DNA from: Candidatus Thorarchaeota archaeon
GTDB lineage: Archaea > Asgardarchaeota > Heimdallarchaeia > Hodarchaeales > Hodarchaeaceae
Length of the DNA stretch: 32,000 nucleotides
Direction of reading: 5' to 3'
NCBI GenBank assembly: GCA_048882505.1
Contig: JBHLRO010000006.1
Span: 30,001-62,000 of the forward strand
A model generated the notes under the pieces. That model saw nothing but the letters and a program-made list of their open reading frames with translations. It did not search any database and was not told where the DNA came from. Numbering within the stretch: the stretch's first letter is position 1; every line of letters starts with the position of its first letter. Shown here in pieces: positions 19,161 through 25,747 of the stretch. Made by a program: the position numbers and the translations under genes.

Positions 19161-20048
19161 ATGAGCAGGATGACCACTCCAAGTGGAATTTATAGCGTGA
19201 TGATATACAGCCTAGAATCACGTCGCATTCTCATTCATCGAATATATTCTCGGGATGAATCTGTGGTTAATAATCTAGACACGCTTTATTCAACCATTGT
19301 GTCCTTTAAAGGTGAAAACGAGGGGAAAGAAGATGTGTCAACGTTTCCAATGAAAACTAGAAAAATCTTAATTACTTCCGCTGAAAACTTAATCTTCATG
19401 ATTGTGGTTGCACCCCATTATGGAACTATCGAAGCGGAAAAAATCCTATCTCATATCAGGGCATCATTTTTCCGTAAATATCCTCTTGGTGATTGCAACT
19501 GGCATTTTGATGAACACATGAACTATCTCGTGGGATTTAAAGCCGTCATAGATGAGATAGTGGAACACTTCGGCGACCCAAAGACCATAGTAAAAATCGT
19601 GCTGATGGGAATAGACTACGCGGGCAAAACGACGTTAACACATGCTTACGCGGGGAGTAATTATCGAGATTATCTCCCTACAATGGGACTGGACATTCTA
19701 AGAATAGAATACAAGAATAAACACATTCGTTTATGGGATCTTGGCGGGCAAATGCTGTTTAGAAGCTTATGGCCTAAGTTTGCGAATGAAGCATCTGGAA
19801 TAATTTTTGTCGTTGATTCAGCCACAACCCGGTGGAGCGAAACCAAAGAAGTATTTGAAATCTCTCTGCTGTTTAAATTACCCTATATCATATTTGCTAA
19901 CAAACAGGATATAGTAAAACGAGCACAAAGCATTAACTTCATTGCGGAGAGGTTACAAGTTCCTGAAGAAAAAATAGTAAAAGGGAGTGCTTTATTGAAC
20001 AAAGGGATCTATGAAGTCTTAGATGGGTTACTGGATGAAATTGGTTGA
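19161..20048 (+). CDS. Longin-domain / Arf-like small GTPase fusion
   Basis: C-terminal GIDYAGKTT, PTMG, WDLGGQ, FRSLW, GIIFVVDS and FANKQD are Arf-type. The N-terminal ~135 aa have the longin pattern: beta hairpin, helix, three strands, then EAEKILSHIRASFFRKY. Confidence 0.8.
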   Translation: MSRMTTPSGIYSVMIYSLESRRILIHRIYSRDESVVNNLDTLYSTIVSFKGENEGKEDVSTFPMKTRKILITSAENLIFMIVVAPHYGTIEAEKILSHIRASFFRKYPLGDCNWHFDEHMNYLVGFKAVIDEIVEHFGDPKTIVKIVLMGIDYAGKTTLTHAYAGSNYRDYLPTMGLDILRIEYKNKHIRLWDLGGQMLFRSLWPKFANEASGIIFVVDSATTRWSETKEVFEISLLFKLPYIIFANKQDIVKRAQSINFIAERLQVPEEKIVKGSALLNKGIYEVLDGLLDEIG

Positions 20049-20111
20049 GCACTTAATTGTCTAAATCAAAGAGGAAGTGAATGTTTTTAGCCATTAAAGG
20101 AAGGTCTAAGA

Positions 20112-21845
20112 ATGATGGAAACATCAGAAGTGGCTACGATTGAGAAATTGCAGGAAAAGCTCAAATTCCGTCGAAAAGTTGAAAGGGCGATTGGGGATAT
20201 TTCGACTTATCTTGTTTTTTCAAGTAGTTTCAACCTGTCCATCGAATATTTCCTCTCCGAAATCGCAGAACTATACCATTTCTATTTTGTAGATGGGGCA
20301 GCTGTTTGTTTATTTGATGAACCTTCTAATGACCAAATTTCGGTACTTGGATGGAATTCAGAAAAAAATATAGATAATCGTGTAAATCTTAAGGAATTTC
20401 CGATTGGAAATTTCATCTGGTTCCAAAACCAGATCAAAGCAGGGCGCGAACTTGTTCTCACTGAAACTTATGAATTCTCGAATGAGGCCCAACCAGAAAA
20501 AGCCTTTTTTAGTGAACATACTATCAAATCCCTCATCGCAATCCCTATCTTCACTCCTGAATATATTGCGGGTACATTTGTGCTGGTTAGCCTATCCAAC
20601 CAGGTGTGGCAGGAGGAAGATCTTCGTACCCTTAGATTGTTCGCTGAACTTTTGGGTACAGCAATCTTTCGAAAAAAAACGGAGGAGACGCTTTCAAAGG
20701 CGAGAGACTATTTAAAGGCTCAAATTGACCGAAAAACTGAGGATTTAAGCACTGAAAAGCAAAGAATCGAATTGATCCTGAATACAATAAAGGATGGAGT
20801 CATCGTACTTGATCAAGATGGGAAGGTGACCATGGCTAATGAAACCTCAAAGCGATTTTTTAATCTGATTATGGATTTGCCGCTGATTATAGGCGTTAAC
20901 CTAGTTTTAAGCACTGGAAATACGTTTTTTAGAACCATAAGAGGTCTCTTTTTGTCGTTTTTTAAAAACGAAGTGACAATTGAACCTAAAAAGGGACTCC
21001 ATCTTCAAATTGCCTCGGCTCGGGGAAAATATCCTGCCCTTCATACCTCCGGCATGATAATTGAGCTTCGAGACGTTACAGCGTTTATAGAGTTTGACAA
21101 TATGCGAAAGCGATTCGTTTCTACCGTGAGTCATGAACTTCGAACCCCGATTACGGTTATTAATCAGTCCATCAATAATTATGAGAAATATGGAAATAAA
21201 CTGCCAGAAAAGACCAAAACGAAATTATTCTCTGCAATCGCACGGAATTCCCGACTGCTTTATGAACTGGTGGAGGACCTACTTTTGATTTCTAAAATAG
21301 ATGAACGAAGGATCGATGAGAGAGGATTTGAGCTCCATTGGCAGGACTACGATATAAAACAGATTATAGATGAAGTCACAACGCAATTAGAGCCCAGGGC
21401 CAAGGCCAAGGATATTAATATCCTTAAATCGGGTTTTGTGAAAGCGCCTATGTTTGGGGACCCGAATCGTGTTGCTCAGATATTTCGTGCATTAATTGAT
21501 AATGCCATCAAATATTCTGGCAGTTCAAGTATAATTAGGATTACAGGAAAGGATGATTATACGGGAAAATACAATACGCAGGGAATAAATGGAATTCTTG
21601 TTAAAGTTATCGATTCGGGGATTGGAATAGACGGGGAGGATCTACCAAAAGTATTTAATAGATTTTTTCGGGCCAAAAGTGTAAGTCACATATCGGGAAC
21701 AGGATTAGGGTTAGGTATTGCTCGTGATCTTGTGAAGATGCATAAAGGGGAATTGTTTGTTGAAAGTGCCTTAGGAAAGGGAACTATTACGCTTGTGTTT
21801 TTGCCTAGAATCACCGAGGCCGAGTTAAGACCTGAAGAGAGCTAA
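20112..21845 (+). CDS. Cytoplasmic sensor histidine kinase: GAF + PAS + HisKA + HATPase
   Basis: IKSLIAIPI...GTFVL (GAF); KDGVIVLDQDGKVTMAN (PAS); SHELRTP H-box; N box DNAIKY; G1 DSGIGI; F box FNRFF; G2 GTGLGL. No TM segment. Confidence 0.93.
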   Translation: MMETSEVATIEKLQEKLKFRRKVERAIGDISTYLVFSSSFNLSIEYFLSEIAELYHFYFVDGAAVCLFDEPSNDQISVLGWNSEKNIDNRVNLKEFPIGNFIWFQNQIKAGRELVLTETYEFSNEAQPEKAFFSEHTIKSLIAIPIFTPEYIAGTFVLVSLSNQVWQEEDLRTLRLFAELLGTAIFRKKTEETLSKARDYLKAQIDRKTEDLSTEKQRIELILNTIKDGVIVLDQDGKVTMANETSKRFFNLIMDLPLIIGVNLVLSTGNTFFRTIRGLFLSFFKNEVTIEPKKGLHLQIASARGKYPALHTSGMIIELRDVTAFIEFDNMRKRFVSTVSHELRTPITVINQSINNYEKYGNKLPEKTKTKLFSAIARNSRLLYELVEDLLLISKIDERRIDERGFELHWQDYDIKQIIDEVTTQLEPRAKAKDINILKSGFVKAPMFGDPNRVAQIFRALIDNAIKYSGSSSIIRITGKDDYTGKYNTQGINGILVKVIDSGIGIDGEDLPKVFNRFFRAKSVSHISGTGLGLGIARDLVKMHKGELFVESALGKGTITLVFLPRITEAELRPEES

Positions 21846-21918: not shown

Positions 21919-22299
21919 ATTTCAGACTTAATTATGGTCGTAGAAGACAATCCTGATGTTTTGTTTAATCTAGTGGTAACGCTTGAAGCTAATGGATATG
22001 AAGCAGAAGTTGCCACAAATGGTAAGGAAGCCACAAGAGTTCTGTTGAAAAAAGATCCCGAATCACTACCAAGTCTAATAATCAGTGATATTATGATGCC
22101 GGAAATGGACGGGTACGAATTCTACCAATTTTTACAGGGGGATCAAGCATACAAGCATATACCCCTAATCTTTCTCTCCGCCCTCGCGACACCAGATGAT
22201 ATTCGCTTTGCGGAAATATTGGGTGCCAAAGATTACATAACAAAACCATATAATGAAGAAAAGTTGCTTACCTTGATTAGAGAGAAACTGGACGGGTAA
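21919..22299 (+). CDS. Single-domain response regulator (receiver)
   Basis: VVEDN, SDIMMPEMDG, FLSA and KPY motifs. The first ATG is at 21934; an in-frame ATT at 21919 behind GGAGG is my proposed start. Confidence 0.9.
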   Translation: MSDLIMVVEDNPDVLFNLVVTLEANGYEAEVATNGKEATRVLLKKDPESLPSLIISDIMMPEMDGYEFYQFLQGDQAYKHIPLIFLSALATPDDIRFAEILGAKDYITKPYNEEKLLTLIREKLDG

Positions 22300-22306
22300 G
22301 TGATCC

Positions 22307-23719
22307 TCAAAATTCATAGAGGCCCCAACTGGCCGAGACTGTTCTCGGTTGTTGATCCACATGGATTCGTATGATTCTAGAGAACCCGAAAACGTTTCCT
22401 AGACCTGTTAATAACCCTTCGATAACCCCTATAATTAGAAGTGAGCTTCCTTCTCGTGGTATCTCGATGTCTACCTGCATTCCACCAGCAATATTACTTA
22501 TTTCCACCCCAATTAGCTGATGAACTGGTTTATCCAGCATTTTACCTATATTTCCAGATAACCAATCCCTGAAGATATTGTTTGCCAGACTTTCGCCATA
22601 AGGAACGGAGAGCGCCTTAATTTTTTTCCAAAACTCTTTCGAGTCCGATTCAGGAGCTAGCTCTCCAGATAGGGTTTTCCATACGTGGTTCTGAGTCTCA
22701 AAGAATATCGAACTTCTTAAAACATTGATCAATAGATCTTGGGGAATCATTCGGGCTAGAATTCGCATGAAGGCCAAGTAAAGAGAATCATCCAAGATGG
22801 AAGAAAGGAATACAGAATAACGGGGCCAGATAAACAGACCTTTAAAAGCCTTTAAGAAGTCTAAGAGATTGGGTTGGAGCTCGCTCACCTTGTTAGGATC
22901 ATACTTATGAGCTAATAATCCGATGAAGGGCGATTCCTTCATTGCTTTGAGAACATTCATAATATCGGTTAGGTAAATGTACGCCTCTTCGAATTCGGCT
23001 GGGTTTTGGATATCAACCATGAAAATTAATGCTGTTAGGTTTTTCCACTTAAATTCGTCATAAACATGTTTTTTTACGTATTCCGTCTGTCCGCCTAAAT
23101 CAAAAATGGTTAATTCAGTTTTTAAAACGTCTATGAACGAATTAAAAATAGAATAATCGACAGTTGGTCTGATCCTATCCAACTGTTCTTTGTTCCAGGA
23201 ATCAAAAAATCCACGAATGGCTGTGGTCTTTCCTGCTTTTCTTAATCCTGCAACAACTATTTTAGGAAGTTTCCTCCTGGGTTTCTGAGAGGGAGGTGCG
23301 GGCAATTTGAATTCATGCGTAAACCATTCATCGAAAAACGAGTCAACTTTCTCTGTAACCTCAGGTGTAATGAAATCCAACTCTTGGTCTTTGAATCGCT
23401 CTTCAATACTATTCCCCAGATTTTCAATTATCGGATAGAGATCGTCCGAACTAGTACCTAGTGGAGTCATGACTGAGACCAGTACAGAAGCGAACCTTTT
23501 TACATGTAGTTGGGAATTTGAAAAAACAAGCTCCTGAATGTCATCTTTCACGATTTCCTTAGAGAACTGAATTAATGCCGAAAGAAATCCCGATATTAGC
23601 TGACTGTCATGGTCCAGAAAGAACGAGGGTTCAAAGTTTTTTTGATAAAGCTCTATCCCTGTGTCAATGTTTATGACTGAAATCCGTTTAATGGAAGATT
23701 GAGAAGGATCTGACGTCGT
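22307..23719 (-). CDS. Longin + Rag/Gtr-like small GTPase + V4R/Bet3-like three-domain protein
   Basis: The frame stays open upstream of GTG 23551 to a stop at 23774-23776 and encodes IKRISVINIDTG...DSQLISGFLSALIQFSKEI (longin). GTPase motifs: GLRKAGKTT, RPTVD, DLGGQ, HKYD, SSILDDSLYLAF...IP (Rag-type). The start codon is uncertain. Confidence 0.75.
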   Translation of the reverse strand, partial: TTSDPSQSSIKRISVINIDTGIELYQKNFEPSFFLDHDSQLISGFLSALIQFSKEIVKDDIQELVFSNSQLHVKRFASVLVSVMTPLGTSSDDLYPIIENLGNSIEERFKDQELDFITPEVTEKVDSFFDEWFTHEFKLPAPPSQKPRRKLPKIVVAGLRKAGKTTAIRGFFDSWNKEQLDRIRPTVDYSIFNSFIDVLKTELTIFDLGGQTEYVKKHVYDEFKWKNLTALIFMVDIQNPAEFEEAYIYLTDIMNVLKAMKESPFIGLLAHKYDPNKVSELQPNLLDFLKAFKGLFIWPRYSVFLSSILDDSLYLAFMRILARMIPQDLLINVLRSSIFFETQNHVWKTLSGELAPESDSKEFWKKIKALSVPYGESLANNIFRDWLSGNIGKMLDKPVHQLIGVEISNIAGGMQVDIEIPREGSSLLIIGVIEGLLTGLGNVFGFSRIIRIHVDQQPRTVSASWGLYEF

Positions 23720-24032
23720 TGATTTCGCTCCAGTCTGCGAAGATTGAGGATTACAACTTACGTTATGAATACTTTAGTCGAGAAATATCCCGTACAATGT
23801 ATTTCCGAACTGGAATACTATGATGTTCATGTGACCGATTCTCCTTAAGGGTGAAGGAAATTCGTCTGATGCACTGAAACTTGTCAAACCATATTTATTA
23901 ACTTAGTCATATTTATCGATTTCAGAAATTCTCTAGCAGGTTTTCAAATGTTCACTAAAAGCAAAATGTTTTGAAGAAGTATTGATATGATAAAGAAAGC
24001 ATAAGTGAACGATCCCCATTGGAGTGAAGTAA

Positions 24033-24752
24033 ATGGGAAAAGACAACAACGGTCAGGAATACGAATCGTTTTATGATCTTTGGGAACGTATAAAAAGCGA
24101 AGAATTAACTATTTTACCAGAAGAATCCAAAACCCATATTGAAGAGAATTTATTCCTTGATGAACAAGGAGGGGAGTATTTTATGAAGATTGTATTAGCA
24201 GGGGATGGTGCCGTTGGAAAAACTTCCTTAAGACGAAGTTTTTTAGGCGAGGATTTTTCATTTGACTACCAAACGACAATCGGAGCCGATTTTGCCACCC
24301 ATCGGGAACAAATAGCCAATCGATCCGTGAAATTTGTAATTTGGGATCTGGCAGGCCAACCCCAGTTTCATCAGGTAAGAAAAACGTTCTATTCCGGGGC
24401 ACACGGAGCACTTGTTGTATGTGATTTAACCAATCCCACCTCGTTCGAAAACCTGAAGCACTGGATAAATGAACTATGGCGATACAATGCGGAAGGGCCC
24501 GTGCCCTTTGTCATTGTGGGAAACAAATGCGATCTTAGGGATTTGGGATATGCAAGAATTTCTGATAAAAAGATTCATTCTGTTACAAAAATCATTAATG
24601 AAGAAACCTCACGGAAAAGTGGGTTTGGCGTCAAATCCATTACCACAAGTGCACGAACGGGGGAAGGAGTAATAGAAGCGTTCAAGCAGTTAGCTGTCCA
24701 AATTATTGCACATCGTAACTACATCAGGAGAAAGCGTCAAAAACCCGAGTAA
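24033..24752 (+). CDS. Rab-like small GTPase with acidic N-terminal extension
   Basis: G1 GDGAVGKTS, G2 TTIG, G3 WDLAGQ, G4 NKCD, G5 TSA; RabF-like IGADF, KFVIW, FYSGA and LVVCDLT. Confidence 0.93.
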   Translation: MGKDNNGQEYESFYDLWERIKSEELTILPEESKTHIEENLFLDEQGGEYFMKIVLAGDGAVGKTSLRRSFLGEDFSFDYQTTIGADFATHREQIANRSVKFVIWDLAGQPQFHQVRKTFYSGAHGALVVCDLTNPTSFENLKHWINELWRYNAEGPVPFVIVGNKCDLRDLGYARISDKKIHSVTKIINEETSRKSGFGVKSITTSARTGEGVIEAFKQLAVQIIAHRNYIRRKRQKPE

Positions 24753-24847: not shown

Positions 24848-25747
24848 CTAGCGTAAATTAGAGGAGGTAGTTGATAGAATTTTGACAAAATTATCCCAGT
24901 TCAGATTCTCAGAGAACTGGTTTCCGTGCTTATAGTCTGTTGCCATCTTTTCAAATTCCTCCTTTATTCTGAGGGACGCGAGATAGTTAATTTTCTGAGC
25001 TAGAAGGACGATCATAAATTGGCGTTTGCCCCCTCTAACTTCTGGATCTTCAATCGTATCAAAGTAAATATAGCCGTCTCGGTCGATGTTTGCGATTCGT
25101 AATAAAACCCCTTGTGGCTCATAATAATCCAGCTGGCCGTAGACTGAGACCGCGGTTTGAAACAGCTGGGTGCCAAGCTGGCGTAAGTCAAACTTAGTGT
25201 TGGAATCTGATGGAAAGATATCTCTTACTTTGGGACCATAAGCTTCATCCCATATCACATTAAAGAGTATAACTTCTCCTCTTTCACTTGGGGTCATTGA
25301 AGAACCGAGCTCATTTCGCAAGGATGTAAGCAGGTTTTTTTCGATTTGTTTACCCAGTTCTTTGTTTTTTATACTCCGCTGGATCTTTCCGGCAATTGAT
25401 GATAACAAATCCTTGTCGTTGAAGGGTTTGGTGATATAATCATCTACTCCAAGTATTTTGCCAAAACGTACATCCTCAGGAGATGCTTTCGCTGTAAGAA
25501 AGATAAAAGGGATAAAACTCCACGCCGGGTTATCAGAAACACGGCTGAAAAATTCGTATCCGTCCATTTCCGGCATCATGATGTCACAGAGGAAGAGGTC
25601 TGGGGGTTCATCGAGTTCAGATAACATGTTGAAGGCTTCGATGCCATTTTTTGCGCCTATCGGCCTGTATCCATTGAATTCCAACAATAATTCCAGGTTG
25701 TAGAGGATTTTAGCATTATCTTCAATGATAAATATTGTAGGTTTCAT
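24848..25747 (-). CDS. Response regulator with C-terminal uDENN/longin-like output domain
   Basis: Complete receiver domain (EDN, D55 in CDIMMP, LTA, KPF). Residues ~157-290 carry VIWDEAYGP and TIEDPEVRGGKRQFMIV, resembling the two folliculin/SMCR8 uDENN signatures. Confidence 0.8.
   Translation of the reverse strand: MKPTIFIIEDNAKILYNLELLLEFNGYRPIGAKNGIEAFNMLSELDEPPDLFLCDIMMPEMDGYEFFSRVSDNPAWSFIPFIFLTAKASPEDVRFGKILGVDDYITKPFNDKDLLSSIAGKIQRSIKNKELGKQIEKNLLTSLRNELGSSMTPSERGEVILFNVIWDEAYGPKVRDIFPSDSNTKFDLRQLGTQLFQTAVSVYGQLDYYEPQGVLLRIANIDRDGYIYFDTIEDPEVRGGKRQFMIVLLAQKINYLASLRIKEEFEKMATDYKHGNQFSENLNWDNFVKILSTTSSNLR

Follow-up and report, generated by a model that had tools for sequence, protein, structure and literature searches.

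Longin-GTPase fusions have been described in MK-D1 (PMC10933270). According to PMC11914678, the N-terminus is a longin domain in some Asgard Arf-type GTPases (AArfs), many AArfs that carry additional N-terminal domains probably do not act on membranes, and no native regulator or effector of an Asgard Arf is known. The protein analysed here, designated longin-Arf, is like the AArfs with an N-terminal longin reported there: both are from Hodarchaeales, carry a longin before an Arf-type G domain and are without a short N-terminal amphipathic helix. The original prediction that the fusion alone would not be new agrees with this report of longin-Arf fusions in Asgard archaea. Forms with a C-terminal GAF domain and a fixed link to a histidine kinase were not found in the text searched in PMC11914678, dataset D8 aside.

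The ArfRs of known structure, HodArfR1 and GerdArfR1 (10.1101/2024.02.28.582541; PDB 8OUK, 8OUL and 8OUM), share with longin-Arf the G motifs, the interswitch length, the RxxW motif and the absence of Gly2, but their N-terminal helix is free, and they cannot bind membranes without it. Longin-Arf matches 8OUL with 68 bits, and the true HodArfR1 orthologue of the genome is another gene (G000:C18:355-930, 275 bits to 8OUL). The MK-D1 and Loki longin-GTPases (PMC10933270), which are taken here as ArfL by motif and tree position, have the same domain order and a similar size (about 290-305 aa), but differ from longin-Arf in G1 (xGGV), G3 (DFAGQ) and G5, form a separate clade (support 99-100) and have longins that fall apart from those of longin-Arf. 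An Arf-family G domain is likewise combined with a longin in SRbeta-SRX, in Arf1 with adaptin and COP longins and in C9orf72-SMCR8-Arf1, where the two are separate polypeptides rather than one fused chain. Actinobacterial conservons (AGPS, CvnABCD; PMC13343842, PMC4316618) also bring together a small GTPase, a roadblock/longin-type fold, a histidine kinase and sometimes a GAF protein; their GTPase is MglA-type, their roadblock protein is MglB and their operon order is fixed, and they serve as an analogy only.

With a probability of about 0.5, longin-Arf is a member of the ArfR/AArf group of Hodarchaeales that works as a soluble GTP switch tethered to a partner, and not as a membrane-inserting Arf. 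Its setting is best read as a lineage-specific kinase/GTPase signalling island. The elements added by this analysis are the GAF-tailed forms, an orientation-independent link to one kinase and possibly a deep position in the tree.

Gene and gene product

In the 32,000-nt stretch of DNA analysed (the window), the open reading frame at 19161-20048 on the plus strand is real and encodes a 295-aa Hodarchaeales longin-Arf GTPase; the database gene call (P0001) begins at the second ATG and gives 292 aa. The named close homologues are mostly from Hodarchaeales, two Hodarchaeota MAGs are the nearest genomes that have a name, and no transmembrane segment was found in the protein. Pfam Arf matched residues 134-293 with 100 bits (E 1.4e-28), followed by Ras (38.6), SRPRB (27.3) and Gtr1/RagA (16.7). 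The Arf-like character originally claimed is borne out by this score, by structural matches to Arfs and by the motifs named at the time, all of which were located: WDLGGQ (192-197), FRSLW (200-204), FVVDS (216-220) and FANKQD (245-250). The diagnostic value of FRSLW is limited, as the motif is present in Loki longin-ArfL proteins too. The myristoylation glycine is missing as claimed, with either start codon and in every aligned family member. This absence says little, because membrane-binding Asgard ArfRs also lack Gly2 (10.1101/2024.02.28.582541); with the fusion already reported, neither feature is new. The features of the locus are shown in Table 1.

Table 1. Features of the longin-Arf locus, in positions of the window
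Feature	Position	Strand	Basis and remarks
Longin domain	19161..19574	+	Residues about 9-138; fold, moment/charge, alignment to Arf helix position, GAP motifs absent
Arf-related (ArfR/AArf-type) G domain	19584..20048	+	Residues 142-295; intact G1-G5, catalytic Gln197
HK1, soluble GAF-PAS-HisKA-HATPase histidine kinase	20112..21845	+	Orthologue within one gene in 11/11 informative loci
Stand-alone receiver protein (REC1)	21934..22299	+	Travels with HK1; locus comparison
Longin-Rag-like GTPase	22307..23719	-	Orthologue nearby in 9/11 loci; frame open upstream of GTG at 23551
Rab-like (RasL) GTPase	24033..24752	+	Orthologue in same island in most loci
REC-longin protein (originally called REC-uDENN)	24848..25747	-	GP motif and RGG arginine-finger-like motif

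G domain

The G1 motif of longin-Arf is GIDYAGKT, with Ile in place of Leu; among the family rows Leu is found in 8/10 and Asp in 8/10. G3 is DLGGQ, with the Gly at position 3 of DxxG that marks ArfR/AArf, and it is followed by RxxW (Arg201 and Trp204). The interswitch from Thr174 to Asp193 is 19 residues long, as it is in 17 of 18 eukaryotic Arfs and 7 of 8 ArfRs. NKQD of G4 and Ser276-Ala277 of G5 are invariant in the family. Four signatures are common to the family, ArfR and eukaryotic Arf and are not shared by ArfL, namely L/I-D-x-A in G1, the switch I-G3 spacing of 19, RxxW and SA..G in G5; from ArfL, Rag and RasL the family differs at G1, G3, interswitch, RxxW and G5. The best Foldseek matches of the G domain were Arl2, Arl3, Arl1, Arf1, GerdArfR1 and HodArfR1, the highest structural Z was 21.5 (Arf6), and the best sequence matches among solved structures were Arf1, Arl2, Arl3 and HodArfR1. 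Three residues that we take, from their Arf1 equivalents, to line the Arf helix pocket are retained, with Tyr184 invariant and Leu287 and Leu290 nearly invariant in the family.

Phylogenetic placement

Trees were inferred under LG+C20 from 154-155 columns, with 10 ArfRs sampled and without Sar1, SRbeta or a proper MglA outgroup; the group labels, including ArfL for the reference set, are our own assignment. The longin-Arf family is a clade in these trees. Without Rag it joins ArfR and eukaryotic Arf at 92/88 and is sister to the rest (94/97), within a limited sample of ArfRs, and 275 of 300 bootstrap trees group it there (24 place it with ArfL). With Rag included, the family joins ArfR, Arf and Rag at 80/36, with Rag nested inside. 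A quick tree in which one MglA sequence served as the outgroup gave no information on placement. The Arf-related branching that was originally expected was thus recovered when Rag was left out, but AU tests reject neither the ArfR/Arf grouping (p 0.24) nor sisterhood with ArfL (p 0.54). On motifs and predicted structure longin-Arf is likely an ArfR member, though the trees do not settle it.

A more far-reaching version takes the position as sister to all other ArfRs and eukaryotic Arfs, seen in this limited sample, at face value. Longin-Arf would then be a deep-branching lineage on the Arf side whose interswitch toggle moves the longin instead of a membrane helix, and which stands in a direct regulatory relation to a histidine kinase, either as its controller or as its target. 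We hold this version as a tentative one, with the odds clearly against it; if true, two-component signalling would have an Arf built into its circuitry, one whose ancestral form carried a GAF that senses a ligand.

Longin domain and the question of membrane action

The predicted structure of the N-terminal domain has the topology beta-beta-alpha-beta-beta-beta-alpha-alpha. The model has the five-stranded sheet, alpha1 and two C-terminal helices of a longin and is without an N-terminal roadblock helix. Modelled alone, the domain reached a pLDDT of 79.5 and a pTM of 0.77, compared with a pTM of 0.59 for the full-length protein, in which the relative orientation of the longin and the G domain was not confidently modelled. 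Its top structural match was the VAMP7 longin (Z 15.0, rmsd 3.2, 123 residues aligned), followed by synbindin (Z 14.5), Sec22b (14.4) and sedlin (14.0); the top matches were all longins, and the best roadblock match (Z about 10) spanned the first 110 residues only. The longin proposed from the letters alone was therefore confirmed by structure prediction. The Pfam longin families did not match longin-Arf itself, weak Pfam Longin matches were obtained in the relatives P0022 and P0023, and a profile built from the family longins alone matches other Asgard longins at E about 1e-17. Neither the GP motif before beta2 nor the arginine finger was seen in the fused longin, which is thus not a longin of the GAP type (FLCN/SMCR8/NPRL2).

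Longin-Arf has no free N-terminal amphipathic helix like that of a canonical membrane-binding Arf (N-terminal moment 0.17). The last longin helix (residues 121-137) is amphipathic (moment 0.4-0.8), sits by sequence alignment exactly at the position of the Arf N-terminal helix and ends in a nearly invariant His136-Phe137. These properties would suit a GTPase that still acts at membranes, with the last longin helix or the whole longin as an anchor controlled by nucleotide, or with the longin bound to a membrane protein, as in SRbeta-SRX or Arf with adaptin sigma/mu. We think this improbable: in the model this helix, which precedes the G domain, is built into the longin fold, it is net acidic in 20 of 23 family members, in contrast to the charge of +4 at the N-terminus of the HodArfR1 orthologue, and neither HK1 nor REC1 has a clear transmembrane segment.

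Family and GAF tails

The longin-Arf family is small, with about 25 proteins (22 full-length homologues of 37-65% identity and three more distant). The gene is carried by 3 of 400 Asgard genomes, all of one genus; in five further genomes, in which every candidate was scored, no longin-Arf gene was found, and the Atlas search returned no cluster of the family. Seven members, deep branches included, have a C-terminal GAF domain, and in two others a short remnant of a tail is left; the GAF is probably ancestral and has presumably been lost in this copy. A Rosetta-stone link through the GAF was rejected, as the GAF tail of the relatives does not match the GAF of HK1. A search for longer fusions, for example to a kinase, brought up only eukaryotic Arf fusions, which is weak evidence.

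Several other proteins were observed in the course of these searches. P0127 is a distant longin-Arf of 1336 aa with about 1000 unannotated C-terminal residues (L166:1492-9527, Logan SRR31656001), and its gene lies two genes away from a tandem tubulin pair (424 and 475 aa). P0154 is an ArfL-like longin-GTPase with a weak C-terminal RING/zinc-finger match. A second, commoner Hodarchaeales family consists of Arf-like proteins of about 300 aa with an N-terminal domain (G000:C8:211-1152, which is L172, and L210-L213); it has no DxxG in G3 and is possibly a pseudo-GTPase, and its N-terminal domain gives a faint longin signal at best. The genome that encodes longin-Arf has about 50 small GTPases, including a 317-aa Arf-like protein (G000:C13:92286-93239) that has a long extension at its C-terminus and reads DLGGH, with His at the place of the catalytic Gln, as Sar1 does.

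Gene neighbourhood

Neighbours were compared in 11 distinct loci with enough flank, which are close kin, so that the counts are not independent. HK1 begins 63 nt past the longin-Arf stop in the window, as originally noted, and its orthologues, which lie within one gene of longin-Arf in 11/11 loci, are 55-60% identical, over the full length where complete. HK1 is co-directional with longin-Arf in 3/11 loci (the window, L012 and L087), divergent in 4/11 (G052, L004, L006 and L011) and convergent, with the receiver gene between, in 4/11 (G051, L008, L009 and L010). The link to HK1 is conserved and the operon arrangement is not; of the original description of longin-Arf as heading a kinase operon, only the physical linkage holds. 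Of the genomes in this genus, those with an HK1 orthologue are the three that carry longin-Arf and two more in which the island is cut by a contig end.

A promoter and terminator scan, with bacterial models on an archaeal host, gave chance-level counts. At 20084-20104 a T5-A tract lies 23-28 nt ahead of the HK1 start codon, with a purine-rich stretch nearer to it; the tract could be a TATA-like box or an oligo-T terminator, and transcription of HK1 may therefore start from a promoter of its own. The frame of the Rag-like gene (22307-23780, minus strand) runs on without a stop for about 75 codons ahead of the GTG at 23551, with no ATG, GTG or TTG in that stretch, and its orthologues are 467-470 aa long, which makes a non-standard start codon likely. 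In L008, L009, L010, L012 and L167, longin-Arf lies directly downstream of the smc operon and is co-directional with it; two scpB genes are present in four of these five loci.

It is doubtful that longin-Arf is a passenger, independent of the kinase, in a lineage-specific signalling cluster beside the smc-scpAB operon. Such incidental linkage would fit the varying orientation, the placement directly behind smc or smc-scpAB in several loci and the lack of an HK1-type kinase near the distant relatives P0022, P0122 and P0127; the linked loci are without exception from close relatives, and the linkage may reflect shared ancestry of the island, and gene layout is a poor predictor of Asgard GTPase partners (PMC10933270). 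Against this, adjacency to HK1 has persisted while the sequences diverged by about 50% and the locus was rearranged at least twice.

REC-longin protein

The combination of a REC domain with a GAP-type longin has been noted earlier (10.1101/2020.10.19.343400), and GAP longins are marked by a GP motif and an arginine finger (PMC12290439). In the REC-longin family the GP motif is invariant and RGG is mostly conserved. Two REC-longin orthologues (L158 in G007 and L159 in G006) keep the GP motif and are without the RGG arginine.

The original prediction made longin-Arf a likely substrate of this protein. It would then be the client of a phosphorylation-controlled GAP, comparable to C9orf72-SMCR8 acting on Arf1, with the fused longin as a possible heterodimer partner. 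The GAP marks and the sharing of one island in 5/11 loci are consistent with this; in three loci no REC-longin gene lies within 7-10 kb, and the gene is present at full length in 9 genomes where longin-Arf was not found, three of them single-contig with 92-96% completeness. The steady neighbour of REC-longin is an HK2-type kinase, its tie to longin-Arf being loose, and in G050 a Rag-like gene directly adjoins it. The GAP family to which it belongs also acts on Rags (FLCN, NPRL2). A complex prediction of full longin-Arf with the REC-longin domain (GDP, Mg) scored 0.00, which speaks neither way. The substrate claim was weakened accordingly and now appears unlikely; REC-longin may act on longin-Arf, and Rag-type and Rab-type GTPases are equally plausible targets.

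Relation to ArfL

It is highly unlikely that the G domain branched off from the longin-fused ArfL group and owes its Arf likeness to convergence or retained ancestral motifs rather than to ArfR descent: the unrejected ArfL sisterhood, the common layout and FRSLW, and the identity of ArfL to the family (28%, compared with 23-24% to other Arfs) are outweighed by the G1, G3, G5 and interswitch agreement with ArfR/Arf, by the few bootstrap trees with ArfL once Rag is removed and by a longin tree that does not unite the family's longins with those of ArfL (p-AU 0.059). That tree also gives no support to a single ancestral longin-GTPase fusion shared with ArfL. The high rank of ArfL longins in a first genome profile search was due to two ArfL rows in the profile; with a profile of the family alone, GTPase-free longins outrank them.

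Proposed mechanism and significance

If longin-Arf is the soluble, partner-tethered switch proposed above, its mechanism can be outlined from that of Arf, where on GTP binding the interswitch moves out into the pocket otherwise occupied by the N-terminal helix. GTP loading would push out the interswitch hairpin of longin-Arf in the same way. The linker from the longin to the G domain is about 5 residues long and lies at the site where the Arf helix docks, and the pocket residues are kept, so the toggle would be expected to move the longin or to change how it binds a protein partner. This partner probably belongs to the same island, HK1/REC1 or the longin-Rag protein being the candidates; through it, the nucleotide state would be linked to two-component signalling, in loose analogy to the actinobacterial conservons. 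In the GAF-tailed members a small ligand probably feeds in directly. The constant HK1 neighbour suggests a role in signalling rather than in membrane shaping.

The fusion itself is known from earlier work and the family occurs only in a narrow lineage, so that it has limited relevance to the origin of eukaryotes unless the deep position holds. For the regulators and effectors of Asgard Arfs, the constant neighbours (one kinase, one receiver, a longin-Rag and a Rab) provide a short list of candidates, and the family shows what an Arf switch may do without a membrane helix.
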